Of a stretch of 64,000 nucleotides of DNA, positions 41,786 to 58,692 are shown in pieces. Within the stretch, counting starts at the first letter, position 1; every line of letters starts with the position of its first letter. The DNA is from Brevinematales bacterium (GTDB lineage: Bacteria > Spirochaetota > Brevinematia > Brevinematales > GWF1-51-8), in NCBI GenBank assembly GCA_020059465.1, contig JAGVBZ010000030.1, positions 199,976-263,975 on the forward strand, written 5' to 3'. The notes beneath the pieces were generated by a model that saw only the letters and a list, made by a program, of their open reading frames with translations, did no database searches and was not told the DNA's origin. The position numbers were made by a program, and so were the translations under genes.

Positions 41786-43129
41786 ATGCAGAACTTCCCT
41801 TCCCGAATACGGACGCTTCTTTTCCGTGTCATTCCAATCATCATCCCGTGTATTCTCGCCGCCGATTATTTAACGATTACTCGTCCGTCCGTGATCGGGA
41901 CCGGCGCGGTACTGATCGATACTCCGAACGCGGTCAAGGTTGAGAAGGCCGTATTCAACCTCGTATTCGGGGATACGTTCTGCGATGTGACCGCCGAGTA
42001 CACCCTTCATAACTACGGCGGGACTGCATCTTTCCCGTTACATATCCCCGTCTATTATTTTAATGACGGTATCCCGGATAAAAAGTGGGGCGCGGACGAA
42101 TTCTCCATCCTCGCAGTCGCGGCCGGCAGTATAAAAATTCCCTGCTCTGACGCAACACAGCCCGCCCAGTACTCCCCTGAATATATCCGCGGTTATATCC
42201 TGTACAGCTCTGAAAAACCGCCGCTGATCGAAACCTATTATTATACGTTCAATCTGAAAATACCGTCCAAACAACCGTTGACAGTCAAAGTCGCCTACCG
42301 CGCCGCCCTGTTCCGCGAAGATCATATCAACAGCCAGTACTCGTTATCCGGCACTTTCGGTTACTCCCAGTTCCTCCTGGATTTCAGGCCGCTTGCGGGG
42401 TTCGGCGACGGCGTTATCGGCGAACTGAAGATCGTCGCGGATACCGGCATATTCGCCGGAAAATCGTCCGGGCTGATTCAATCCGTATTCCCCGAGGACG
42501 CGCTCTATTCGGCGTGGCAAGGCGGATTCTCCTATACGGTCAGCAATCTTTATATCACCGGCGCGCTTCCGCTGTATCTGGCATGGGACCTGTCGGGTTA
42601 CCTCAACGCGAGTTATATCATGAAACACACTCTTCCGAAAGAAGCGGTCAAAAAGACGGTCGCGTCGACTATCCTCAACTATAAGCAGGACCCGTTCAAG
42701 GAATTCTCGCTTACCTGCCTGTACGACAACCGTCTGGACACATGCTGGAGCGAGGGGAAAAAGGGTTCCGGGGAGGGCGAATGGATCGAGGTCAAGGTCG
42801 CGAAAGGATATAAGGTATCGGCGATAGCGGTCGCGACGGGATACCTCAAGACGGAGAACCTTTACAAGAAGAACTCAGTCCCCGTCAAATTCAGGGTGGA
42901 TTTTATCTATCCGGGCGGAAAGGTGAAAACGATGACCGCCGATCTCCCGAAGCTCCCATACAATAATATGGAACTTTACAGCCATATCCGCAAGCTGGTC
43001 GAACTGGACGCGCCGGAACGTGTGGATAAGATTCGGATTACGATACTGGGGGTGTCGCCCGGCAAGAAGTACGATAACGCGTGCATATCGGAATTGTATA
43101 TATTGGGGGAGAAGTCGAAGGGGAAATGA
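41786..43129 (+). CDS. larger paralog with the same C-terminal discoidin-like domain
   Basis: 447 aa. CLYDNRLDTCWSEGKKGSGEGEWIEVKV ... YLKTENLYKKNSVPVKF ... CISELYILG parallels 41069..41719. Confidence 0.65.
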   Translation: MQNFPSRIRTLLFRVIPIIIPCILAADYLTITRPSVIGTGAVLIDTPNAVKVEKAVFNLVFGDTFCDVTAEYTLHNYGGTASFPLHIPVYYFNDGIPDKKWGADEFSILAVAAGSIKIPCSDATQPAQYSPEYIRGYILYSSEKPPLIETYYYTFNLKIPSKQPLTVKVAYRAALFREDHINSQYSLSGTFGYSQFLLDFRPLAGFGDGVIGELKIVADTGIFAGKSSGLIQSVFPEDALYSAWQGGFSYTVSNLYITGALPLYLAWDLSGYLNASYIMKHTLPKEAVKKTVASTILNYKQDPFKEFSLTCLYDNRLDTCWSEGKKGSGEGEWIEVKVAKGYKVSAIAVATGYLKTENLYKKNSVPVKFRVDFIYPGGKVKTMTADLPKLPYNNMELYSHIRKLVELDAPERVDKIRITILGVSPGKKYDNACISELYILGEKSKGK

Positions 43130-43175: not shown

Positions 43176-43388
43176 TTATGAAAATATCATCAGTTCGCTT
43201 TCAGTTTTATTATCGGGAATCAACAGCCCTTCCGCTTCCATTCCCTCAATATGGAACTTAATCCCTTCATAAATTAATTCTTCGGTTTCTTCTTTCGTAT
43301 CGCCAAAAGCAACACAACCCGGAAGGTCGGGGACATACGCGCTATACCCGTCTTTTGATTTTTCAAATAATACCACATATTTTTTCAT
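43176..43388 (-). CDS. hicB: HicB-family antitoxin
   Basis: 70 aa. YSAYVPDLPGCVAFGDTKEETEELIYEGIKFHIE is the HicB N-terminal fold signature. 4-nt overlap with hicA. Confidence 0.85.
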   Translation of the reverse strand: MKKYVVLFEKSKDGYSAYVPDLPGCVAFGDTKEETEELIYEGIKFHIEGMEAEGLLIPDNKTESELMIFS

Positions 43389-43597
43389 AGCTTCTCCTCA
43401 TCAATCTGAGCCTGCTTCATTATACTCTTCAGAGTTAATAATGGGACGTCTTTGGATAATTTATGACAGGCAATTGTTACCAAACCTTTTTTTATCGGAT
43501 GTTTATACTGCCGATGACTTCCTTTTTGCCTATCCAAGCACCAACCGTCTTTTTCAATAATTTTTATTATATCAGATACTTTATAATTTTTCATCAT
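43385..43597 (-). CDS. hicA: HicA-family mRNA interferase toxin
   Basis: 70 aa. VSDIIKIIEKDGWCLDRQKGSHRQYKHP...VTIACH (HicA G-S-H motif). Confidence 0.85.
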   Translation of the reverse strand: MMKNYKVSDIIKIIEKDGWCLDRQKGSHRQYKHPIKKGLVTIACHKLSKDVPLLTLKSIMKQAQIDEEKL

Positions 43598-45478: not shown

Positions 45479-46225
45479 TTATTTGCCGACAGGTAGTTCC
45501 TTCATTCCGTCGAGCGAAAACATTGAGGGATCGATCATCGTCTCTTCTACCGCGATAATTACAAACTTCGATCCTTTGAAACTCGGTTTATACAAGGGGT
45601 TTTCTCGCGACGGTTCCTCGATATTTTCATACTTCATCAATATCCCGAACTTTGGATGTTCGAAAAATATAGATTTTATCATCGTATTCGCGAAATACTC
45701 CGTGGAGGAATAAATATCTGCAAGCATTTCCTTTAATCGGGGGTCTTGCGAGAAATAGAACTGCATATATGAACCGTCGGACGCTTTCCCGACATACAAG
45801 TCGCATTTGAATCCCGCGGCGGTCACTTTTTTCCCGACCGACTTCGGGTCCATCTTTTCTATCAATTTCATTTTCAAATTATAGATGTTTTGCAGGTATT
45901 GCTTATCGCCGCCTGCCTTGTTGATGGGATGGTAATCCGTGATATCGTAATAAGATTGCGGGGGTATTACATGGAAGCACTTTTTCTCTTGGTATATTTT
46001 ATACGGTTCGTTTTTCATAGGCGACCCGTTTCCCATATAGAACATCTCATACATCCGGTCGCATGTAACAAAATAATTAAAATTATGCCATGTATTCGCG
46101 CCGTAGTATTTAACATACCCGCCGGAATACGTCCCGTATTTGATATGATATCCTTTTACTGTCTCGGCAAGCAGTTGCAGATTGATACCTATAATAAGAA
46201 ATAGCGCCCCAAAAACCGGCCTCAT
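45479..46225 (-). CDS. secreted protein, unknown function
   Basis: 248 aa with signal peptide MRPVFGALFLIIGINLQLLA. Loosely similar in organisation to 44691..45416 (YFC/YFS...P..K motif region). Confidence 0.55.
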   Translation of the reverse strand: MRPVFGALFLIIGINLQLLAETVKGYHIKYGTYSGGYVKYYGANTWHNFNYFVTCDRMYEMFYMGNGSPMKNEPYKIYQEKKCFHVIPPQSYYDITDYHPINKAGGDKQYLQNIYNLKMKLIEKMDPKSVGKKVTAAGFKCDLYVGKASDGSYMQFYFSQDPRLKEMLADIYSSTEYFANTMIKSIFFEHPKFGILMKYENIEEPSRENPLYKPSFKGSKFVIIAVEETMIDPSMFSLDGMKELPVGK

Positions 46226-46285
46226 CTATCCTCCGGTAAGGTATGCACTGATTTGAAGGCCTGCCCCAATTTCTTGTGCTCTCTA

Positions 46286-46936
46286 CGCCGTCTTCGCCTC
46301 TTCGGCGCCTTCCTTCAGTATCTCTAATATCTTGTTCGTGACATCGGTTCCGTATGGGGGCTTGCCCTCGGCGCTTTTTACGCCGTCTTCGCCTCTTCGG
46401 CGCCTTCCTTCAGTATCTCTAATATCTTGTTCGCTGCATCCGTTCCGTATGGGGGCTTGCCCTCGGCGGTATTTACGCCGTCTTCGCCTCTTCGGCGCCT
46501 TCTTTCAGTATATCCAGTATCTTGTTCGCTACATCCGTTCCGCAAAGGGGGCTTGCCCTCGGCGGTATTTACGCCGTCTTCGCCTCTTCGGCGCCTTCTT
46601 TCAGTATCTCAAATATCTTGTTCGCCACATCGGTTCCGCAAGGGGGCACGCCCTCGGCGGTATTTACGCCGTCTTCGCCTCTTCGGCGCCTTCTTTCAGT
46701 ATCTCTAATATCTTGTTCGTGACATCCGTTCCGTATGGGGGCTTGCCCTCGGCGGTATTTACGCCGTCTTCGCCTCTTCGGCGCCTTCCTTCAGTATCTC
46801 TAATATCTTGTTCGCGACATCCGTACCGCAAAGGGGGCTTGCCCTCGGCGGTGTTTACGCCGTCTTCGCCTCTTCGGCGCCTTCTTTCAGTATCTCTAAT
46901 ATCTTGTTCGTGACATCGGTTCCGCCGGGGGTGCAC
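46286..46936 (-). repeat. 7 x 95/96-bp tandem repeat: 3' end of rnfB (tail + stop + spacer) plus six downstream copies
   Basis: Unit starts (plus strand, cgccgtcttcgcc...) at 46286, 46381, 46476, 46572, 46667, 46762 and 46858, giving periods 95, 95, 96, 95, 95, 96. The last unit is the genuine rnfB 3' end. See findings. Confidence 0.95.
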
Positions 46937-47151
46937 TTCGAGTGCGATATTTTATCCTCGACTATCGCGTCGGCATAACCTGCGCACCCGGGGTATCCGC
47001 ACGCTCCGCAGTTATAGCCCGGCAATACATGCTGAATTTTCTCGATCCGGGGGTCGAGCTGGACATGGAATACCTTTGCGAAAATCGCGATCATGATTCC
47101 CAGGAATACGCTCAATACGAGCATGAATAACGCGGAGTATAGTATTGTCAT
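46855..47151 (-). CDS. rnfB: RnfB, truncated form (TM + N-terminal Fe-S domain only, 98 aa)
   Basis: TM (ILYSALFMLVLSVFLGIMIAIFA) plus LPGYNCGACGYPGCAGYADAI...KCTPGG matches the RnfB N-terminal cluster domain. No CxxCxxCxxxCP ferredoxin domains follow. The stop TAA at 46857-46855 lies inside the repeat array. Confidence 0.8.
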   Translation of the reverse strand: MTILYSALFMLVLSVFLGIMIAIFAKVFHVQLDPRIEKIQHVLPGYNCGACGYPGCAGYADAIVEDKISHSKCTPGGTDVTNKILEILKEGAEEAKTA

Positions 47152-47161
47152 TTTCGCCCCC

Positions 47162-47749
47162 TTAGCCTAATTTCACTATGCCGAGGAACCCGAACATCGC
47201 AAGCGACATCAGCCCAGCGGTGATAAACGCTATCGGAAGGTCTTTGAACGCCTTCGGCACTTCCGCCGTATCGAGCCGTTCCCGAACACCGGACATCATC
47301 ACGAGCGCAAGCGTAAAGCCGATACCCGCCGCGAACGCGAACACGAGGCTTTCAAGGTAATCGAAGTTCTTCTGGAGAACCAAGAACGCCGATCCGAGAA
47401 TCGCGCAGTTTGTGGTAATGAGCGGGAGATAGATGCCCAGCGCCTTATACAGGCCCTTGCTCAGCTTTTTCAGCACGATCTCCACCAGCTGGACGAACGC
47501 CGCGATCACGAGGATAAACACGCTGATCTGCAGGAACTTGTCCAGTCCGAGTGGCACAAGGATATATAAATTGATCGGGTAGATAATCATAATCGACATG
47601 ACCAGCACGAATGTCACCGCGAAACCCATCCCGATCGCGGAATCCATTTTCTTCGATACACCGAAGAACGGGCAAAGCCCGAGGAACTGCGAGAGGATGA
47701 AGTTATTGACGAAAATAGCGCTGATGATAATGACAAAAAGTTCGTTCAT
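47162..47749 (-). CDS. rnfA: Rnf complex subunit A
   Basis: 195 aa, six TM. FVNNFILSQFLGLCPFFGVSKK is the RnfA/NqrE signature. Confidence 0.92.
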   Translation of the reverse strand: MNELFVIIISAIFVNNFILSQFLGLCPFFGVSKKMDSAIGMGFAVTFVLVMSIMIIYPINLYILVPLGLDKFLQISVFILVIAAFVQLVEIVLKKLSKGLYKALGIYLPLITTNCAILGSAFLVLQKNFDYLESLVFAFAAGIGFTLALVMMSGVRERLDTAEVPKAFKDLPIAFITAGLMSLAMFGFLGIVKLG

Positions 47750-47759
47750 TTACCGCCTC

Positions 47760-48509
47760 CTACGCCGCTTTATTCGCGGTTTTCGCCGCGGCGGCCATTT
47801 TTTTCAACGCTTTTTCACGCTCTTCTTTTTTATTCTTACGGTACTTGATTACCGCGAGCATCAGTCCCATCAGGAGAAATCCGCCCGGAGGCATAATCAT
47901 CACCATAGCGGGGGATGTCAGCACCTGCGCGACATTGATTACCGACGGGTCGCCCAGCACGGGCGCGCCGAAGTTGTAAATATTTCCCATTCCGGCAAAC
48001 TTCAGTGTAATAGTCGCGCTCCCGACCAACTCACGGATCAGCCCGATGATAAACAGCGCGAGGGTAAATCCGACGCCCATCCCAAGCCCGTCAAGCGCCG
48101 ATTTCCCGACCGTGTTCTTATTCGCGAACGCTTCCGCGCGGCCGAGGATGATACAGTTCACCACGATCAGGGGAATAAAGATACCGAGCGATTTATTGAT
48201 ATCCGGGGTAAACGCCTGCATGACGAGCGAAATCAGTGTCACGAACGACGCGATCACCACGATATAGCTCGGAATACGTACAGCGTCGGGGATAAAATTC
48301 CGCAGGAGAGAAATAATGATATTCGAACAGACCAGCACGAATATCACCGATACGCCCATGGCAAGCCCGTTAATCGTCTGAGTGGTCACAGCAAGAGTCG
48401 GACATAAACCGAGCACCACAACGAATATGGGGTTTTCCCGGAAAATACCCTTGACAAACTCATACCATCCGCTCGTCTTGGGAATATTAGGAATTTTATC
48501 AGCGCTCAT
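47760..48509 (-). CDS. rnfE: Rnf complex subunit E
   Basis: 249 aa. NPIFVVVLGLCPTLAVT (RnfE/NqrD signature), with a K/A-rich C-terminal tail. Confidence 0.9.
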   Translation of the reverse strand: MSADKIPNIPKTSGWYEFVKGIFRENPIFVVVLGLCPTLAVTTQTINGLAMGVSVIFVLVCSNIIISLLRNFIPDAVRIPSYIVVIASFVTLISLVMQAFTPDINKSLGIFIPLIVVNCIILGRAEAFANKNTVGKSALDGLGMGVGFTLALFIIGLIRELVGSATITLKFAGMGNIYNFGAPVLGDPSVINVAQVLTSPAMVMIMPPGGFLLMGLMLAVIKYRKNKKEEREKALKKMAAAAKTANKAA

Positions 48510-49102
48510 TTAGTGCCTCCCTTTTGCGTGTTCGTGTTCGTCATCGCCCCCGGTATTCCGACCGGAGCCACAGCCTTGAGCTGTTCGAACGCGAGCTTGA
48601 GATTGTCCGCGACAGCCATCGAGGTGATGGTCGCGCCGGTGATGATATCCAGCCCGTACTTGCTGAAATCCGCCTTCGAGCCGGGGACTTTATCCGCTGT
48701 CAGGTTCGTGAACTGGGACTGCCACGCCTTCTCGGTACATTTATTCCCCAATCCGGGGGTTTCCGACGCGGCGCTGAGGACAAAGACACTATTGATCGAA
48801 CGGTCCGGCTTGACCCCGACAAGAGTGACCACAGGGCCGCCGTACCCGATTTTCGCTTTCTTAAACACATATCCCGCGATATTCTTCTGCGAGTCGTACC
48901 CGATATAGTACGGCTCCCCGGTATTCGTGATTTTCTCGAACACCGCCGCCTGCGGAAGTACCGCTGTCAGCGCGTCGTTCTCTTCTTTCTGTATCGTTTC
49001 GTCGATCTTCTTTTCGAGAAGCTGATAGGTCATACCGAGCGCCGCGCCGAAAAACACGGCTATGATAACTAAGGGATAAATCGTCTTGATTAAGTTTTTC
49101 AT
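48506..49102 (-). CDS. rnfG: Rnf complex subunit G (FMN-binding)
   Basis: 198 aa. N-terminal TM, GYGGPV, ETPGLG, ITGATITS (flavinylation Thr motif). Confidence 0.9.
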   Translation of the reverse strand: MKNLIKTIYPLVIIAVFFGAALGMTYQLLEKKIDETIQKEENDALTAVLPQAAVFEKITNTGEPYYIGYDSQKNIAGYVFKKAKIGYGGPVVTLVGVKPDRSINSVFVLSAASETPGLGNKCTEKAWQSQFTNLTADKVPGSKADFSKYGLDIITGATITSMAVADNLKLAFEQLKAVAPVGIPGAMTNTNTQKGGTK

Positions 49103-50307
49103 TTAGCGCCTCCCTTCATCAGAATAGCGGCTTTGCCTTTGCCGTAGATTTTAGGCTTCAGGTAACGGTCGAAGATCGGCACGAAGAAGTTCATGAATAC
49201 GATGGAGTAGCTCACTCCCTCGGGATACCCGCCCCACAACCGGATAATAACGGTCAGGGTGCCGAGCAGGATACCGTAGATAAGCGTTCCCTTGATAGAC
49301 ATCGGCGATGTCACATAGTCGGTCGCCATAAAGAACGCGCCTAGGAACAATCCGCCGGACAGGATATGGTACAGCGCGTCTCCCGCGAACCATCCCAATC
49401 CCATCGGGAGTCCCCCGAATATCCACACGAGAAGCGCGGCGGAACCGATATAGACAATCGGGAGAATGGGGATCAGCACCTTTCGCCACATCAGGTAGAT
49501 CGCGCCGAGCAGAATCGCCAGCGCGGAGGTTTCCCCGATACAACCGGGCACATTACCGATAAACAAGTCCCAATAACTGTACGCCATCGCCGGCGCGACA
49601 TGGGACGCGTGGCTGACCGCCTCGACCGCGTTCGTCGCCTTCGACATCGTCTCGTACATCGATTTCAGGCTTCCCAGCGGGGACGCCCCGGTGATCATAT
49701 CCACCTTCACCTGATTGGTGAGTATATTTGTCTGGATTGTATTGGAAATCTGCGATATCTGCGAATAGACCTGATTGGTGACATAAGGCACCTTTTCGAT
49801 TATCACGTCGCTCGCCTGCATAAAACTCAGGCCCTTGCTCATCATAGTGGGAACCGTGGGCGACCAGACGTTGACCATCGCGCCCGACCACGCGGCGAGA
49901 ACGAAAATACGTCCGCCGAGCGCGGGGTTCATGATATTATGCCCGAGGCCGCCGAACGCCCATTTCACGATAGCGATGGCGAACATACTCCCGAACACGG
50001 TGACATACCACGGCGAGGACGGGGGGAGGTTGAACGCGAAGAGGATGCCTGTGATGACCGCGCTCCCGTCGGCGATGGATATCGGCCGTTTCAGTATAAG
50101 ATTCATGATAAGTTCCGTGATAACTGCCGTCCCGACGCTCATGCCGATAATCACCGCGGCGTTATAGCCGAAGAAATAAATCGCGGCGGCGGTCGCCGGT
50201 ATCAGCGCGATGACCACGTCCCACATGATGCGGTGCAGTGTCAGCGGCGCGTGAATATGCGGCGAAAAAGGCGCTGTTGCCGCCTTTCCTCCTTTAGCCT
50301 TAGCCAT
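49099..50307 (-). CDS. rnfD: Rnf complex subunit D
   Basis: 402 aa polytopic protein of the RnfD/NqrB type (SPHIHAP..., GLGHNIMNPAL, ITGASPLG). GGAGGG RBS. Confidence 0.9.
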   Translation of the reverse strand: MAKAKGGKAATAPFSPHIHAPLTLHRIMWDVVIALIPATAAAIYFFGYNAAVIIGMSVGTAVITELIMNLILKRPISIADGSAVITGILFAFNLPPSSPWYVTVFGSMFAIAIVKWAFGGLGHNIMNPALGGRIFVLAAWSGAMVNVWSPTVPTMMSKGLSFMQASDVIIEKVPYVTNQVYSQISQISNTIQTNILTNQVKVDMITGASPLGSLKSMYETMSKATNAVEAVSHASHVAPAMAYSYWDLFIGNVPGCIGETSALAILLGAIYLMWRKVLIPILPIVYIGSAALLVWIFGGLPMGLGWFAGDALYHILSGGLFLGAFFMATDYVTSPMSIKGTLIYGILLGTLTVIIRLWGGYPEGVSYSIVFMNFFVPIFDRYLKPKIYGKGKAAILMKGGAK

Positions 50308-50337: not shown

Positions 50338-51666
50338 TTATCCCGCCTGCTTTGCGGCGGCGGCCTGTTTACGTCTCCAGAATCCCTTGCCGAACCGGAA
50401 CATCGCCACAAGCGGAATAGTCGACGGGCACACGAACGAGCACGAGCCGCACTCGATGCAGTCCAGCAGTCCGCGTTCCACCGCCTCTTCCAGCAGACTC
50501 TTATCGACAAGCGTCTTCAGATACCACGGCTCCAGCCCTATCGGGCATACGAACTGACAGCGGGCGCAGCGGATGCACGGGAAATCGTTCACCGCGTAGT
50601 CGCGCTTCTTCGGGAGCACCACGATACCGCTAGTGCCCTTTGTGACAGGGAACTGCATATCGGTCAATTCAAGCCCCATCATAGGCCCGCCCGCGATCAC
50701 AGTACCATGCTCGGCCGGCATGCCGAGCTCGTCGATCAGCGCCTGTACCGGCGAGCCGATACGCACTTTATAGTTGCCGCGTTTCTCGATCTGTTCTCCG
50801 GTGTAGGTCAACCCGCGTTCGATCAGCGGCTTCTGGAATACCACCGCCTCGTAGATCGCGAATATGGTCGCCACATTCTGCACCAGCACCCCTACGTCCG
50901 ACGGAAGCCCGCCCGACGGCACTTCGCGCCCGGTGAGCGCCTGTATCAGTTGTTTTTCCCCGCCCTGGGGATAACGTGTCCTGAGCGCGTAGATTTCGAT
51001 GGAAGAATCACCCTCCGACGCCTTGGATAATGCCTCGATAGCGTCGGGCTTGTTCTCCTCGATACCGATCATGACGCGTTTCACGCCGAGGATTTTCTTG
51101 ATAATATTGACGCCTTCGATAATCGCGTCGGGTTTTTCCAGCATGGTTCTATGGTCGATCGTGAGATACGGTTCGCACTCGGCGCCGTTCACTATGAAAA
51201 TATCCATCGGTTTTTCTTTCGGGGGGGAGAGTTTGACATGGGTGGGGAAAGTCGCGCCGCCCATTCCGACGATGCCGGCGGCCTTGATCATCTCGAGCAG
51301 TTTCTCGGGGGAGGTTTTGGAATAGTCGAACTTCTTGTCGTACCAGTTCCGGATACTCCCGCCGGTCTCGATGATCACATGATCGACTCCCTTCGCGACC
51401 AGCGTATCGCCCTTCTCGACCGCGATTACGGTGCCGGATACGCTCGCGTGGATATTCGCCGATATAAACCCGACCGCTTCGCCGATCAGTTGTCCTTCCT
51501 CGACCTTGTCGCCCGCCTTGACCAATACCTTCGCGGGCGCGCCGATATGCATATTCATCGGGATACGGATCTGTTTCGGCAGGTGCGCGTTCGTGATCGG
51601 CATATCCGCCGTGTATTTGGAATCATGCGGATGAATCCCGCCCTTCTTAAAATACTTTAATTCCAT
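50338..51666 (-). CDS. rnfC: Rnf complex subunit C
   Basis: ATG at 51666 (MELKYFKKGGIHP), 5 nt after GGAGG (rc of 51672-51676). GMGGATFPTH, CIRCARCQFVCP and CIECGSCSFVCP. Confidence 0.92.
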   Translation of the reverse strand: MELKYFKKGGIHPHDSKYTADMPITNAHLPKQIRIPMNMHIGAPAKVLVKAGDKVEEGQLIGEAVGFISANIHASVSGTVIAVEKGDTLVAKGVDHVIIETGGSIRNWYDKKFDYSKTSPEKLLEMIKAAGIVGMGGATFPTHVKLSPPKEKPMDIFIVNGAECEPYLTIDHRTMLEKPDAIIEGVNIIKKILGVKRVMIGIEENKPDAIEALSKASEGDSSIEIYALRTRYPQGGEKQLIQALTGREVPSGGLPSDVGVLVQNVATIFAIYEAVVFQKPLIERGLTYTGEQIEKRGNYKVRIGSPVQALIDELGMPAEHGTVIAGGPMMGLELTDMQFPVTKGTSGIVVLPKKRDYAVNDFPCIRCARCQFVCPIGLEPWYLKTLVDKSLLEEAVERGLLDCIECGSCSFVCPSTIPLVAMFRFGKGFWRRKQAAAAKQAG

Positions 51667-51790
51667 ATCGGCCTCCAATATTACTAGAAATCCGGTACAG
51701 GTATGCTGATGGTATTTCGGTTACCCGTATATGATATTTTCATTTTAAAGATTAGTCAATTTTTCAAAAGATTGAGATTATGGAAAGGAA

Positions 51791-55673: not shown

Positions 55674-57050
55674 TTACTGATTCGTATACTGCTGGATTAC
55701 AACCGCTGCAGTATCGACCCCCGCGACCGGTGTAACCTGTATCGTCGCCGCACTGTCGATTCCCGCAATATTTGTGGATACCCCGTTTACAGAAGTGTTT
55801 GCCACAGTTAAAGACGCGTTACTCATAAAGGCCGCGCCGGGCAGTTCGCCGTTAGCGTCGAGCTTCAGCACCCAAATATCCGAGAAACTCGCGCTCCATG
55901 AGTAGGAATAGCCCCCGATGATATAACCCCCGTCCGATGTCTGACGCACCGATTGCCCCATATCGTTATTCGTCCCGCCGAATGTATTCTGCCACAGAAT
56001 GTTTCCCAGACCGTCGATTTTCAGCGCGAGAACATCCGCGCCGCCCTTTCCAAAGGAAGCCGTATTCCCCGCGATAATAAACCCTCCGTCCGACGTCTGC
56101 TGAATACTTTTAGCATATTCATCGGCGCTCCCGCCGTATGTCTTCTGCCAATTCGTCGTACCGTTGCTATTCAATTTGAGAAGCCAAATATCGTAGCCGC
56201 TCGCGCCGAAGGAAAGAGTATTGCCCGCGAGGAGATATCCGCCATCTGTGGTCTGCAGGACAGAGTATACGCTATCGGAATCAGCGCCCCCGATTGTATA
56301 CTGCCATTCTGCAATCCCAGTACCGTTAAGTTTTAATATCCATATATCACCGAGGCCCGCGCCCATGGATGCAAATCCGCCAACAATATACCCGCCGTCC
56401 GACGTCTGCTGCACCGTCATAGCGCCGTCTTCAGCACCGCCGCCGTAACTTTTCTGCCAGTTCGTCGTACCGTTTGCATCGAGTTTCAGCACCCAGATAT
56501 CGCCGCCGCCCGCATCGAAAGAATAGGTACTGCCTACGACGATATATCCTCCGTCGGAGGTCTGCTTAACATCCGTCACTTCCTCGAAGGAAGTGCCGCC
56601 GAATGTCTTCTGCCAGCTTGAATTTCCATTCGCGTCCAGTTTCAGTACCCAGATATCGGCACTACCCGCGCCGTAGGAATAGGTATAACCCGCGACAATA
56701 TATCCCCCGTCGGACGTCTGCTGAACAGATTGCCCATAATCATTGTTGCTCCCCCCGAATGTCTTCTGCCAATTGGTGGCACCGTCCGCATCAAGCTTCA
56801 GCAACCAGATATCCGAATTCCCGGCGCCGAACGAATCGGTTTGCCCGGCGATTAGATATCCCCCGTCGGATGTCGGCACTATGTTACCCAAATAATCCGG
56901 ATTAATGCCTCTGTACGATTTCGCCCATTTGACGACAGTTACGCCGGTAGGCGGATTATTATCCGCAGGAGGCCCGCCGCAGCCCGCCAATCCCGTCACT
57001 ATTGCCGTAGAGACGGCAACTACAGAAAATATTCTGTGAAAATGTTTCAT
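55674..57050 (-). CDS. beta-propeller repeat lipoprotein (SDGGYI / WQKTFGG repeats)
   Basis: 458 aa. Lipobox GLAGCGG. About 8 tandem ~48-aa repeats: WQKTFGG..D....V.QTSDGGYI.AG.T.SFGAG..DIW.LKLD.NG. Confidence 0.75.
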   Translation of the reverse strand: MKHFHRIFSVVAVSTAIVTGLAGCGGPPADNNPPTGVTVVKWAKSYRGINPDYLGNIVPTSDGGYLIAGQTDSFGAGNSDIWLLKLDADGATNWQKTFGGSNNDYGQSVQQTSDGGYIVAGYTYSYGAGSADIWVLKLDANGNSSWQKTFGGTSFEEVTDVKQTSDGGYIVVGSTYSFDAGGGDIWVLKLDANGTTNWQKSYGGGAEDGAMTVQQTSDGGYIVGGFASMGAGLGDIWILKLNGTGIAEWQYTIGGADSDSVYSVLQTTDGGYLLAGNTLSFGASGYDIWLLKLNSNGTTNWQKTYGGSADEYAKSIQQTSDGGFIIAGNTASFGKGGADVLALKIDGLGNILWQNTFGGTNNDMGQSVRQTSDGGYIIGGYSYSWSASFSDIWVLKLDANGELPGAAFMSNASLTVANTSVNGVSTNIAGIDSAATIQVTPVAGVDTAAVVIQQYTNQ

Positions 57051-57183: not shown

Positions 57184-57348
57184 GCGCTGTCTTCGACGCA
57201 GACTGACTGCCACTATGCTGGCATTTCTATCGTAATGGGTTTTGCCTGCGCAGCAGCAGCCAATACACCCGCGCTGTCTTCGACGCAGGCTCGCTTCTTA
57301 TATACCTGTCTTTCAAACGTAATGGGTTTAGCCTGCGCAGCAGTTGCG
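57184..57348. repeat. two tandem REP-like units (family 1), each an imperfect palindrome
   Basis: Both units start gcgctgtcttcgacgcagRct and end cgtaatgggtttWgcctgcgcagcag (57184-57269, 57271-57348). The ends are partly self-complementary. The core matches 31468-31490 and 9506-9522. Confidence 0.6.
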
Positions 57349-57399: not shown

Positions 57400-58692
57400 A
57401 TGAAGGTAGTGACACCAGAATCCCTGCGAATGTACCGCAGGTCCTTAGCTGAAATCGATAAGAAGATACTCGACCGCGTCGCTGAGATTATCGACGAGGT
57501 ACGCGAACGCGGCGACGATGCGCTGATCGACTTCACGCGCGAATTCGACCGGGTTGAGGGAGATTTCCAGATCGAGGCAACCGACGAGGAATTCGACGAC
57601 GCCCGCGCCCAGGTACGCGCCGAGCACGGCGATATCCTCCGTTATTTCCTCAACGCCGCTGACAATATACGCCGTTTCCACGAGCGCCAGCGCGAATCGT
57701 CGTGGATGTATACCGATAACGGCAACCTGTTCGGGCAGATGATCACTCCCATAGACCGCGCCGGGGTATATGTCCCGGGCGGTAAGGCGTTCTACCCGTC
57801 GTCCGTTCTGATGAACATTATCCCCGCGAAGACCGCAGGAGTACCGGAGATAGTGATCTGCACGCCGCCGCTGAAAAACGGCTCCGCGAACCCGATGGTA
57901 CTGACGCTCGCAAAGGAACTGGGGGCGGAACGGGTGTTTAAGGTAGGCGGGGCGCAGGCGATCGCCGCGCTTACATACGGGACTGAAACCGTACCTTCGG
58001 TCGCAAAAATCACCGGGCCGGGAAATATTTATGTCGCGACTGCGAAACGTCTTGTGTCCGGGATGGTGGGGATCGATTCGATCGCGGGGCCGTCCGAAGT
58101 GGTGGTGCTCGCCGACCATAGCGCAGACCCGGAGCTTGCCGCTATCGACCTCTGCGCGCAGGCAGAACATGACGAAAATAACGCCGTGTTCCTGATCTCG
58201 CCCAGCCGGAACTTTATCGACCAGGTAAACCGCTGCCTCGACAGCATTATTCCTACGCTGGAACGGCGTCATATCATAGAAGCATCGCTCAACCTTCATT
58301 CGTTTGCTGTTGCGGTCGACGACCTCGATCAGGCGTTCGATATCGTGAACAGGATCGCCCCTGAGCATATCGAGGTCATGATGGATATGGACTCGACCGA
58401 GATATTCACACGAATCCATAACGCGGGCGCAATCTTTATCGGAAATTTCTCTCCGGTCGCAACCGGGGATTATTACTGCGGGCCGAACCACATCCTGCCC
58501 ACCAAAGGCACCGCGAGATACTCGTCGCCTCTTGGAGTGTACGATTTTATCAAACGCAGCAGTTTTCTCAGCCTGTCTGAGAGTTATCTGAAGGAAAAAG
58601 GCGACGAGATCGAACAGATTGCGCTTTTCGAGGGATTCGAGGCGCACGCGCTGTCGGTCAGGAAGCGTCTGGACGGGACAAAGGAAGGGTAA
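57400..58692 (+). CDS. hisD: histidinol dehydrogenase
   Basis: 430 aa. GGAQAIAALTYGT, ITGPGNIYV, AGPSEV, QAEHD, APEHIE, GDY..GPNHILPT. Confidence 0.93.
   Translation: MKVVTPESLRMYRRSLAEIDKKILDRVAEIIDEVRERGDDALIDFTREFDRVEGDFQIEATDEEFDDARAQVRAEHGDILRYFLNAADNIRRFHERQRESSWMYTDNGNLFGQMITPIDRAGVYVPGGKAFYPSSVLMNIIPAKTAGVPEIVICTPPLKNGSANPMVLTLAKELGAERVFKVGGAQAIAALTYGTETVPSVAKITGPGNIYVATAKRLVSGMVGIDSIAGPSEVVVLADHSADPELAAIDLCAQAEHDENNAVFLISPSRNFIDQVNRCLDSIIPTLERRHIIEASLNLHSFAVAVDDLDQAFDIVNRIAPEHIEVMMDMDSTEIFTRIHNAGAIFIGNFSPVATGDYYCGPNHILPTKGTARYSSPLGVYDFIKRSSFLSLSESYLKEKGDEIEQIALFEGFEAHALSVRKRLDGTKEG

Follow-up and report, generated by a model that had tools for sequence, protein, structure and literature searches.

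Bacterial variable-number tandem repeats (VNTRs), or minisatellites, have head-to-tail units of ∼100 nt, a copy number that varies between strains, homogenised units and terminal units that are the most diverged. Mycobacterial interspersed repetitive units (MIRUs) are repeats of 40–100 bp, arranged in tandem and dispersed at many loci. In the silent-cassette systems of Neisseria (pilE/pilS), Borrelia (vlsE), Treponema (tprK) and Anaplasma (msp2), promoterless in-frame partial copies lie near an expression site and exchange with it, while in translational bypassing, as in T4 gene 60, and in termination–reinitiation, as in 70S re-initiation in operons, a stop is soon followed by further coding information. 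Here we describe an array that shares traits with each of these. It lies in a 64,000-nt stretch of a Brevinematales bacterium (contig JAGVBZ010000030.1, positions 199,976–263,975; ‘the window’, whose coordinates are used below unless another contig is named), where the 3′ end of rnfB, a gene for a respiratory-complex subunit, is followed by six silent copies of itself. The feature is a lineage-specific, copy-number-variable minisatellite that spans the rnfB stop codon and, as the sequence comparisons below show, evolves in concert with the expressed tail.

The array occupies 46283–46923 on the minus strand and consists of the real rnfB tail and the six silent copies. Tandem Repeats Finder placed the repeat at 46284–46924, with a period of 95, 6.7 copies, 91% matches and a score of 1059, and also returned a higher-order period of three units (286 nt, 93% match). 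The motif CGCCGTCTTCGCCTCTTCGGCGCC begins at 46286, 46381, 46476, 46572, 46667, 46762 and 46858, giving periods of 95, 95, 96, 95, 95 and 96 nt. A scan of the 64-kb window for a 27-nt core of the unit found seven occurrences with no mismatch, all inside the array and none elsewhere, and none of 100 shuffles produced a match. The expressed tail, unit T1 (46855–46923), comprises codons 77–98 (GTDVTNKILEILKEGAEEAKTA) and TAA. The six silent units (46283–46854) each consist of a spacer followed by a 69-nt copy of the tail with its own stop. On the minus strand, the spacers are S1 (46828–46854), S2 (46733–46758), S3 (46638–46663), S4 (46542–46568), S5 (46447–46472) and S6 (46352–46377), of 27, 26, 26, 27, 26 and 26 nt, respectively, and the silent tails are T2 (46759–46827), T3 (46664–46732), T4 (46569–46637), T5 (46473–46541), T6 (46378–46446) and T7 (46283–46351). 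All seven tails are exactly 69 nt long, stop included, and encode G-T-D-[V/A]-[T/A]-N-K-I-[L/F]-[E/D]-I-L-K-E-G-A-E-E-A-K-T-A-stop, the stop being TAA in six units and TAG in the last, T7. Codons 14–22 are invariant, and six of the nine variable nucleotide sites are third codon positions. An earlier note on this DNA had set out the seven copies with their motif positions and periods, the translation of the units, their stops, the invariant last nine codons and the nine variable sites; motif search, Tandem Repeats Finder and alignment of the minus strand bore out all of these, and the 90-aa open reading frame (ORF) that it pointed out at 46664–46936 exists as described. The remaining 57-nt intergenic stretch (46226–46282, minus strand) lies between the last stop of the array and the start of the next gene, whose ATG at 46225 is preceded at 4 nt by GGAGGA. 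Read directly, this stretch includes GGGGCAGGCC, which has the look of a leftover, diverged spacer core.

Like MIRUs, the rnfB units are tandem repeats of ∼50–100 nt that lie between operon genes, in the orientation of the genes and with coding-like frames. MIRUs are unrelated to the flanking gene and the starts and stops of their ORFs overlap those of the neighbours, whereas the rnfB units derive from rnfB itself. Start-codon insertion and −4 nt coupling of the small ORFs of MIRUs to adjacent genes have been described (PMC12548453). Neither is the rnfB unit dispersed, all of its matches in the window (7/7) falling within the array, nor are its ORFs coupled in the MIRU manner: most units have no start codon, all frame classes occur, and the next ATG lies 57 nt beyond the array. 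The open-access literature yielded nothing relevant beyond MIRUs and no published description of gene-tail-plus-stop arrays under purifying selection, although such a negative is weak evidence.

Orthologous loci were gathered through exact-protein look-ups and scans of collections. The closest named relatives are metagenome-assembled genomes, labelled Brevinematales bacterium and Spirochaetes bacterium GWF1_49_6 and GWF1_51_8. Three further lineages have arrays of the rnfB tail that are homologous to that of the window in their position and junction. L089, a 151-kb JGI contig, carries the native tail and three copies, with periods of 93, 94 and 95 nt; GWF1_51_8 (contigs L004, L006 and L087, from at least three assemblies) carries the native tail and two copies, with a period of 101 nt; and GWF1_49_6 (L093, L095, L096, L099 and L100, the last with the same array) carries the native tail and three copies, with a period of 102 nt. 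Copy number differs between close strains. Within GWF1_49_6, strain L094 has the native tail and two copies and L097 a single unit, and the strains with four, three and one units (L093, L094 and L097) share 98–100% identity in their flanks. Similarly, two JGI contigs of the same strain as the window, L001 and L002, match it at 100% identity over 4.5 and 3.6 kb and have only two units. The locus therefore has the head-to-tail units and strain-variable copy number of a VNTR, but what is repeated is the 3′ end of a gene that looks essential, stop codon included, and the silent copies carry a codon-level signature of purifying selection that ordinary intergenic VNTRs lack. The array has persisted or re-formed in four related Brevinematales lineages, as the earlier note's proposed comparison of related rnfB loci brought out.

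Elsewhere the array was not found: not at ∼75 other rnfB loci from many phyla, not in L003 and L098, the sisters of L089 and GWF1_49_6, and not in the nearest outgroups, L102 and L105 (the sequence of L101 does not include the region, and L104 ends at rnfB). A scan of a genome collection with a short-RnfB alignment covered 80 loci and found arrays only in GWF1_51_8, and a metagenome-wide DNA scan for two spacer cores 91–111 nt apart returned only the GWF1_51_8 array together with L086 and L088. The latter are high-G+C metagenome contigs with repeats of their own, a ∼19-nt unit containing GAGGGCCAGCCCCCA in L086 (4860–5030) and 4.6 copies of a 99-nt unit in L088 (770–1221); because of the high G+C and the different units we judge them unrelated to rnfB, the inspection for ORFs covering the flank of L086. 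From identity at 4-fold degenerate sites we obtained the tree ((L089, L003), window), GWF1_51_8, with values of 0.83, 0.69 and 0.53. This comparison left out GWF1_49_6, whose RnfB and RnfE share 90%-identity clusters with those of L089 and L003 and which is grouped with them on that basis. In the first spacer, compared between L091 (1120–1160) and L089 (4890–4925), which come from different samples, a run of C reads CCCC in one and CCCCC in the other; the difference in length shifts the unit period and frame, and is either real slippage or a sequencing error.

The spacers give an indication of how the unit may have been born. That of GWF1_49_6, GCTCGCCGAGGATCAGCTTCGCAGCCCCCCGGC, has the same sequence as the true 3′ flank beyond the last unit as far as a C-run, where it passes into the native ...CCCCCGGCGG (ACC CCC GGC GG(A)). 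Since this spacer is 3′ flank joined to native codons, the unit runs from the C-run of the Thr-Pro-Gly codons to a second C-run ∼100 nt downstream. Apart from 8–9 nt that they lack, the spacers of the other three arrays (window, L089 and GWF1_51_8) agree with that of GWF1_49_6 (alignment A2) and have in common the core CCGAGGGCA[A/G/T]GCCCCC, which points to arrays that may be of common ancestry or may have been born repeatedly at the same microhomology. In the array-less L003 and L098, the in-gene C-run is interrupted (ACG CCC) and the flank has no C-run. Birth of the unit by slippage between two C-runs is likely: a tandem duplication of ∼95–102 nt, from rnfB codons T-P-G-G to ∼25–35 nt beyond the stop, would have arisen between the in-gene ACC CCC GG and GCAGCCCCCCG in the 3′ flank. 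With this span, every unit re-encodes the last 22 residues and the stop, and the RnfB product is unaffected at any copy number.

The copy number of seven is that assembled in this contig, and an assembler collapse is possible for the pair L001 and L002. The opposite error, in which two or three real units, or strain variants, were unrolled to seven, would make the differences between units a record of between-strain variation in the native tail. Such an artefact would concern the copy number rather than the phenomenon. It is suggested by the two units of L001 and L002, which are identical to the window outside the repeat and join within ∼54 nt where T2 equals T7, by the related contigs that end in or at the array (L090, L091, L092 and L005), and by the finding that the six silent units are all different, as if each branch of an assembly graph had been traversed once. 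However, a unit with spacers on both sides needs at least three units in the real molecule, and the three-unit higher-order period of the window array also argues against unrolling. The heterogeneous GWF1_49_6 array was obtained in the same order independently in NCBI, JGI and three ENA assemblies, with the k127 contigs L094 and L095 phasing neighbouring units; the GWF1_51_8 array was recovered in three contigs; and L091, from another sample, likewise has CTC in T1 followed by CTT in T2. We consider an assembly artefact very unlikely.

Minimum substitution events were counted per codon within each of the four arrays. The window gave seven synonymous and four non-synonymous events, L089 four and two, GWF1_51_8 11 and none, and GWF1_49_6 six and six, respectively. 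In total, 28 events were synonymous and 12 non-synonymous, a proportion (28/40) to be compared with a chance expectation of 23–29% (binomial P = 2.8e-9 for a chance rate of 0.25 and 2.1e-7 for 0.30); third codon positions take 30 of the 40 changes. All three changes within stop codons retain a stop (TAA to TAG, TAG to TAA and TAA to TGA), and there is no indel in 14 silent tails, while spacers within arrays vary from 24 to 27 nt. When the changes were scored in all six frames, 72% were synonymous in the RnfB frame, 5–20% in four others and 65% in one antisense frame, the last being the expected echo because its wobble positions coincide with the sense ones. With ∼49.5 non-synonymous and 16.5 synonymous sites assumed for each tail, a rate ratio of roughly 0.14 follows from the 12 and 28 events, respectively. 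Taken by itself the window shows a marginal codon bias, which becomes decisive only once the three related arrays are added; orthologous silent tails of different GWF1_49_6 strains showed no differences, so that this comparison has no power. The codon periodicity across the four arrays is thus robust, and the silent tails carry a clear signature of purifying selection in the RnfB reading frame.

The earlier note had argued for selection on the copies as coding sequence or for their exchange with the expressed tail, and that loss of the third-position bias in copies from relatives would count against this. The bias became stronger when the per-codon analysis was extended to relatives and, as the synonymous excess, the retained stops and the indel-free tails agree, its central inference was largely right. 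Two other accounts of the pattern were rejected. A fossil-snapshot model, in which the copies record past native alleles, predicts ∼42% synonymous changes (P = 3e-4) and is also contradicted by the spacers, which gained indels while the tails gained none. An antisense gene was discarded as well, since antisense ORFs are not conserved and GWF1_49_6 has none across its array.

Copies resemble the native tail of their own lineage, not the copies of other lineages. In L089 a Leu codon is CTG in T1–T3 and TTG in T4, as it is in GWF1_49_6 and L003; in GWF1_49_6 a Thr codon is ACA in T1–T3 and ACG in T4, as it is in L097 and L089. The CTG and ACA states, common to the native and inner copies, indicate that in two lineages a synonymous change spread between the expressed and the inner silent units, as the earlier note had supposed in proposing exchange with the expressed copy. 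These shared derived states reveal native–silent exchange, whose direction and rate they do not give. All four combinations of alleles are present at three pairs of variable sites in the window array (codons 2/5, 5/13 and 2/13). Terminal units hold most of the non-synonymous changes (A to V and A to T in T4 of L089; A to N and E to K in T4 of GWF1_49_6), as expected because the edges of an array are less homogenised. Units are therefore more alike within a genome than between genomes and have derived states in common, as is the case in arrays that evolve in concert.

Our best reading is a minisatellite that evolves in concert with the expressed tail and in which exchange would expose the copies to selection; we give this explanation of the selection about an even chance of being correct. 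Unequal recombination and short-patch gene conversion would shuttle sequence between silent and expressed units, and variants that damage the C-terminal helix of RnfB would be purged on reaching the expressed position. No translation of the copies would be required, and the array would need no function of its own.

Evident exchange between an expressed gene and adjoining promoterless partial copies is also what would be seen if the array were a programmed silent-cassette system, similar to pilS/pilE or vls, that swaps RnfB tails for protein diversity. Such systems are selected for non-synonymous diversity in surface antigens and have no stop in each unit, whereas the rnfB array is largely synonymous, its 12 non-synonymous changes being mostly conservative, and has a stop in every unit. 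The variants exchange V/A, T/A, L/F, E/D or E/K, the GWF1_51_8 copies encode the native peptide exactly, and RnfB is an internal redox subunit rather than a surface antigen; among the window ORFs and their Pfam matches, no recombinase or guide sequence was apparent nearby. We regard a diversity-generating function as extremely improbable.

Several observations weigh against selection by way of exchange with the expressed tail. Indirect selection by way of exchange needs frequent exchange, yet the units are quite diverged at synonymous sites. The three GWF1_51_8 tails differ by 11 synonymous changes and no non-synonymous ones, while the two 35-nt spacers between them differ at one site; by population-genetic reasoning, rather than simulation, tails so diverged would be homogenised slowly and thus be under weak indirect selection. 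The longest identical block, ∼50 nt from codon 14 to the spacer core, is the expected crossover hotspot, and crossovers within it never expose the 5′ half of a silent tail. The rejection of the snapshot model (∼42% synonymous, P = 3e-4) counts on the same side. Small arrays are also retained across three to four lineages that are just 53–83% identical at 4-fold sites, and a neutral array that expands and contracts freely is not expected to be so long-lived, unless it is re-born at C-runs or selected. It is because of this quantitative problem, of synonymous divergence and crossover position, that we rate selection through exchange no higher than evenly.

As the GWF1_51_8 pattern fits exchange poorly, translation of the copies remains a candidate, if a rather unlikely one. 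The silent units would then be under direct selection, re-initiation or recoding after the stops yielding free copies or C-terminal extensions of the RnfB helix GT[D/E]V..KIL.ILKE.... Of the four arrays, that of GWF1_51_8 fits this best, and its signature seems too clean for weak indirect selection. Both spacers of this lineage have an ATG in the tail frame, 17 nt after the stop and 1 nt after GAGGG, which opens a 26-aa ORF, MPPVATEVAAKVLAILKEASEEQAKA; window spacer S3 has GTG at the homologous codon; and the residues of tail codons 1–13 are part of the conserved fold in solved RnfB structures. However, the start codon is absent from that position in five of the six window spacers (AAG), in L089 (AGG) and in GWF1_49_6, and the Shine–Dalgarno-like GAGGG stands just 1 nt from the ATG. 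The periods of 93, 94, 95, 96, 101 and 102 nt found over all arrays fall in all three frame classes (0, 1 and 2 modulo 3), so the −1-frame relation and read-through that the earlier note had proposed are not upheld, and the 90-aa ORF of the window has no counterpart in relatives. Furthermore, three of 11 short-core spacers have 1-nt indels between core and tail, and the tails that follow show no faster decay. No slippery heptamer was seen at the stops by eye, and there is no conserved structure. Thus, although a stop soon followed by a repeat of coding information recalls bypassing and re-initiation, the rnfB arrays are without matched take-off and landing codons, a conserved frame relation, a start codon or a structure. 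Were the units translated, the expected peptides would be MPPVATEVAAK in GWF1_51_8, AEGKPPYGTDV or TPPRASPLCGTDV in the window and ARRGSASQPPGGTEV in GWF1_49_6, and the arrays would be a previously undescribed way to amplify one structural element of a respiratory-complex subunit.

The array might alternatively act as an RNA or DNA element, either intercistronic or in a 3′ untranslated region (mRNA stabiliser, processing site, protein-binding platform or expression spacer), the coding-like tails being a by-product of conversion from the native tail. This would accord with the persistence of the array in several lineages, with a core, CCGAGGGCA[A/G/T]GCCCCC, that is nearly invariant though 4-fold sites are 53–69% identical, with spacers that are near-invariant within arrays (one change in 70 nt in GWF1_51_8 and one in 99 nt in GWF1_49_6), and with the lack of a terminator between rnfB and the next gene. 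Yet the array has no Rfam match at E up to 1, and RNAalifold gave, for 12 units from four lineages, a consensus of −4.1 kcal/mol with only eight pairs and a covariation term of 0.01; the whole-array fold had a high z-score, but for a repeat this carries no information. The hairpin CGGCG-UAAAUAC-CGCCG, which the earlier note had placed around the stop codon, does appear in the minimum-free-energy fold but is lost in GWF1_49_6 (ACG to ACA), where a further 8–9 nt also lie inside the core. Some strains have just one unit (L097, L003 and L098), and such an element would not by itself explain the triplet periodicity. We consider this explanation unlikely, and the earlier note's side ideas of a 3′-UTR RNA and of read-through were not borne out. 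Candidates of known type were likewise discarded: no known RNA family matches, no array of terminators or promoters is present on the rnf strand, and the GGA motifs that a CsrA-type sponge would need are not conserved between units or lineages (by eye only).

The rnfCDGEAB operon, delimited by ORFs and Pfam matches, runs from 51678 to 46855 on the minus strand. It comprises rnfC (50338–51678; RnfC_N/Complex1_51K), rnfD (49099–50307; NQR2_RnfD_RnfE), rnfG (48506–49102; FMN_bind), rnfE (47760–48509; Rnf-Nqr), rnfA (47162–47749; Rnf-Nqr) and a short form of rnfB (46855–47151, 98 aa; PF04060, the Pfam FeS domain, E = 2.9e-14), and is followed by a gene for a 248-aa protein without a Pfam match (45479–46225, minus strand), which is syntenic in all array-bearing relatives. 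Between rnfB and this gene the minus strand showed no terminator-like or promoter-like site; for this reason, and because of the synteny, the array is probably intercistronic.

The rnfB product has the N-terminal transmembrane helix, one in number, and the Cys-rich PF04060 Fe-S domain by which RnfB is recognised within an rnfCDGEAB operon. Pfam found no ferredoxin-type 4Fe-4S domains in its 98 residues, whereas solved RnfB structures contain them. Among database homologues, 36 of 71–137 aa carry PF04060 only and align end to end. Residues 3–89 align to the N-terminal part of the solved RnfB chains 7zc6_B, 8ahx_B and 9eri_B, so that codons 1–13 of the repeated tail encode a helix of the conserved fold, while the last nine tail codons encode an end that is variable and acidic in the homologue alignment. 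The 98-aa RnfB is thus not truncated but belongs to a conserved family with only the N-terminal Fe-S domain, which disposes of the possibility, raised in the earlier note, that the array is the decayed linker of a once full-length rnfB. Mini RnfB forms of 84–105 aa were seen in 20 of 85 fetched loci, in Brevinematales, Thermosipho, Bacilli and others; besides the window, short-RnfB loci include L007–L009, L011, L032, L047–L051, L053, L073 and L077.

The rnf operon is split in two of the lineages, GWF1_51_8 (L004, 328–1820) and L089 (1–1450), by a two-gene insertion between rnfC and rnfD that is absent from the window and L003. The inserted genes encode an AAA_15/AAA_21 ATPase of 342–343 aa, whose best PADLOC matches are HEC-02A, PD-T4-4_A, NsnB, AriA and PtuA, and a 142–152-aa protein without a match; the insertion looks like a defence-type cassette within a respiratory operon. 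Elsewhere in the window, a HicA toxin and a HicB-like antitoxin of 70 aa each are encoded at 43176–43597 on the minus strand (PF07927, E = 9e-21; PF15919, E = 6e-10), and a 447-aa protein with a C-terminal NADase_transloc domain (F5/8 type C) at 41786–43129 on the plus strand is syntenic with L004 and L089. A 458-aa protein of DUF5122 beta-propeller repeats, with a lipoprotein-like N-terminus, is encoded at 55674–57050 (minus strand). A second tandem repeat (57184–57343; 87-nt unit, 1.8 copies, 81% match) is intergenic, lies upstream of a 430-aa ORF at 57400 and has no relation to the rnfB unit.

The locus is a real, replicated evolutionary oddity. Non-coding duplicates of gene fragments should decay randomly, yet the 14 silent copies of the four lineages have not done so. 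For biology the immediate impact is modest; whichever explanation applies, the array is a practical VNTR marker and an assembly break-point in these genomes. If recombination explains the pattern, the array would be a compact natural case of concerted evolution that exposes untranslated DNA to protein-level selection, would illustrate how a tandemly duplicated segment that includes a stop codon can be retained without harm, and would urge caution in calling genes from coding-like conservation or dN/dS signals. If the copies are translated, they would represent hidden small peptides and an unusual route of expression in an energy-conserving complex of uncultured groundwater spirochaete relatives.

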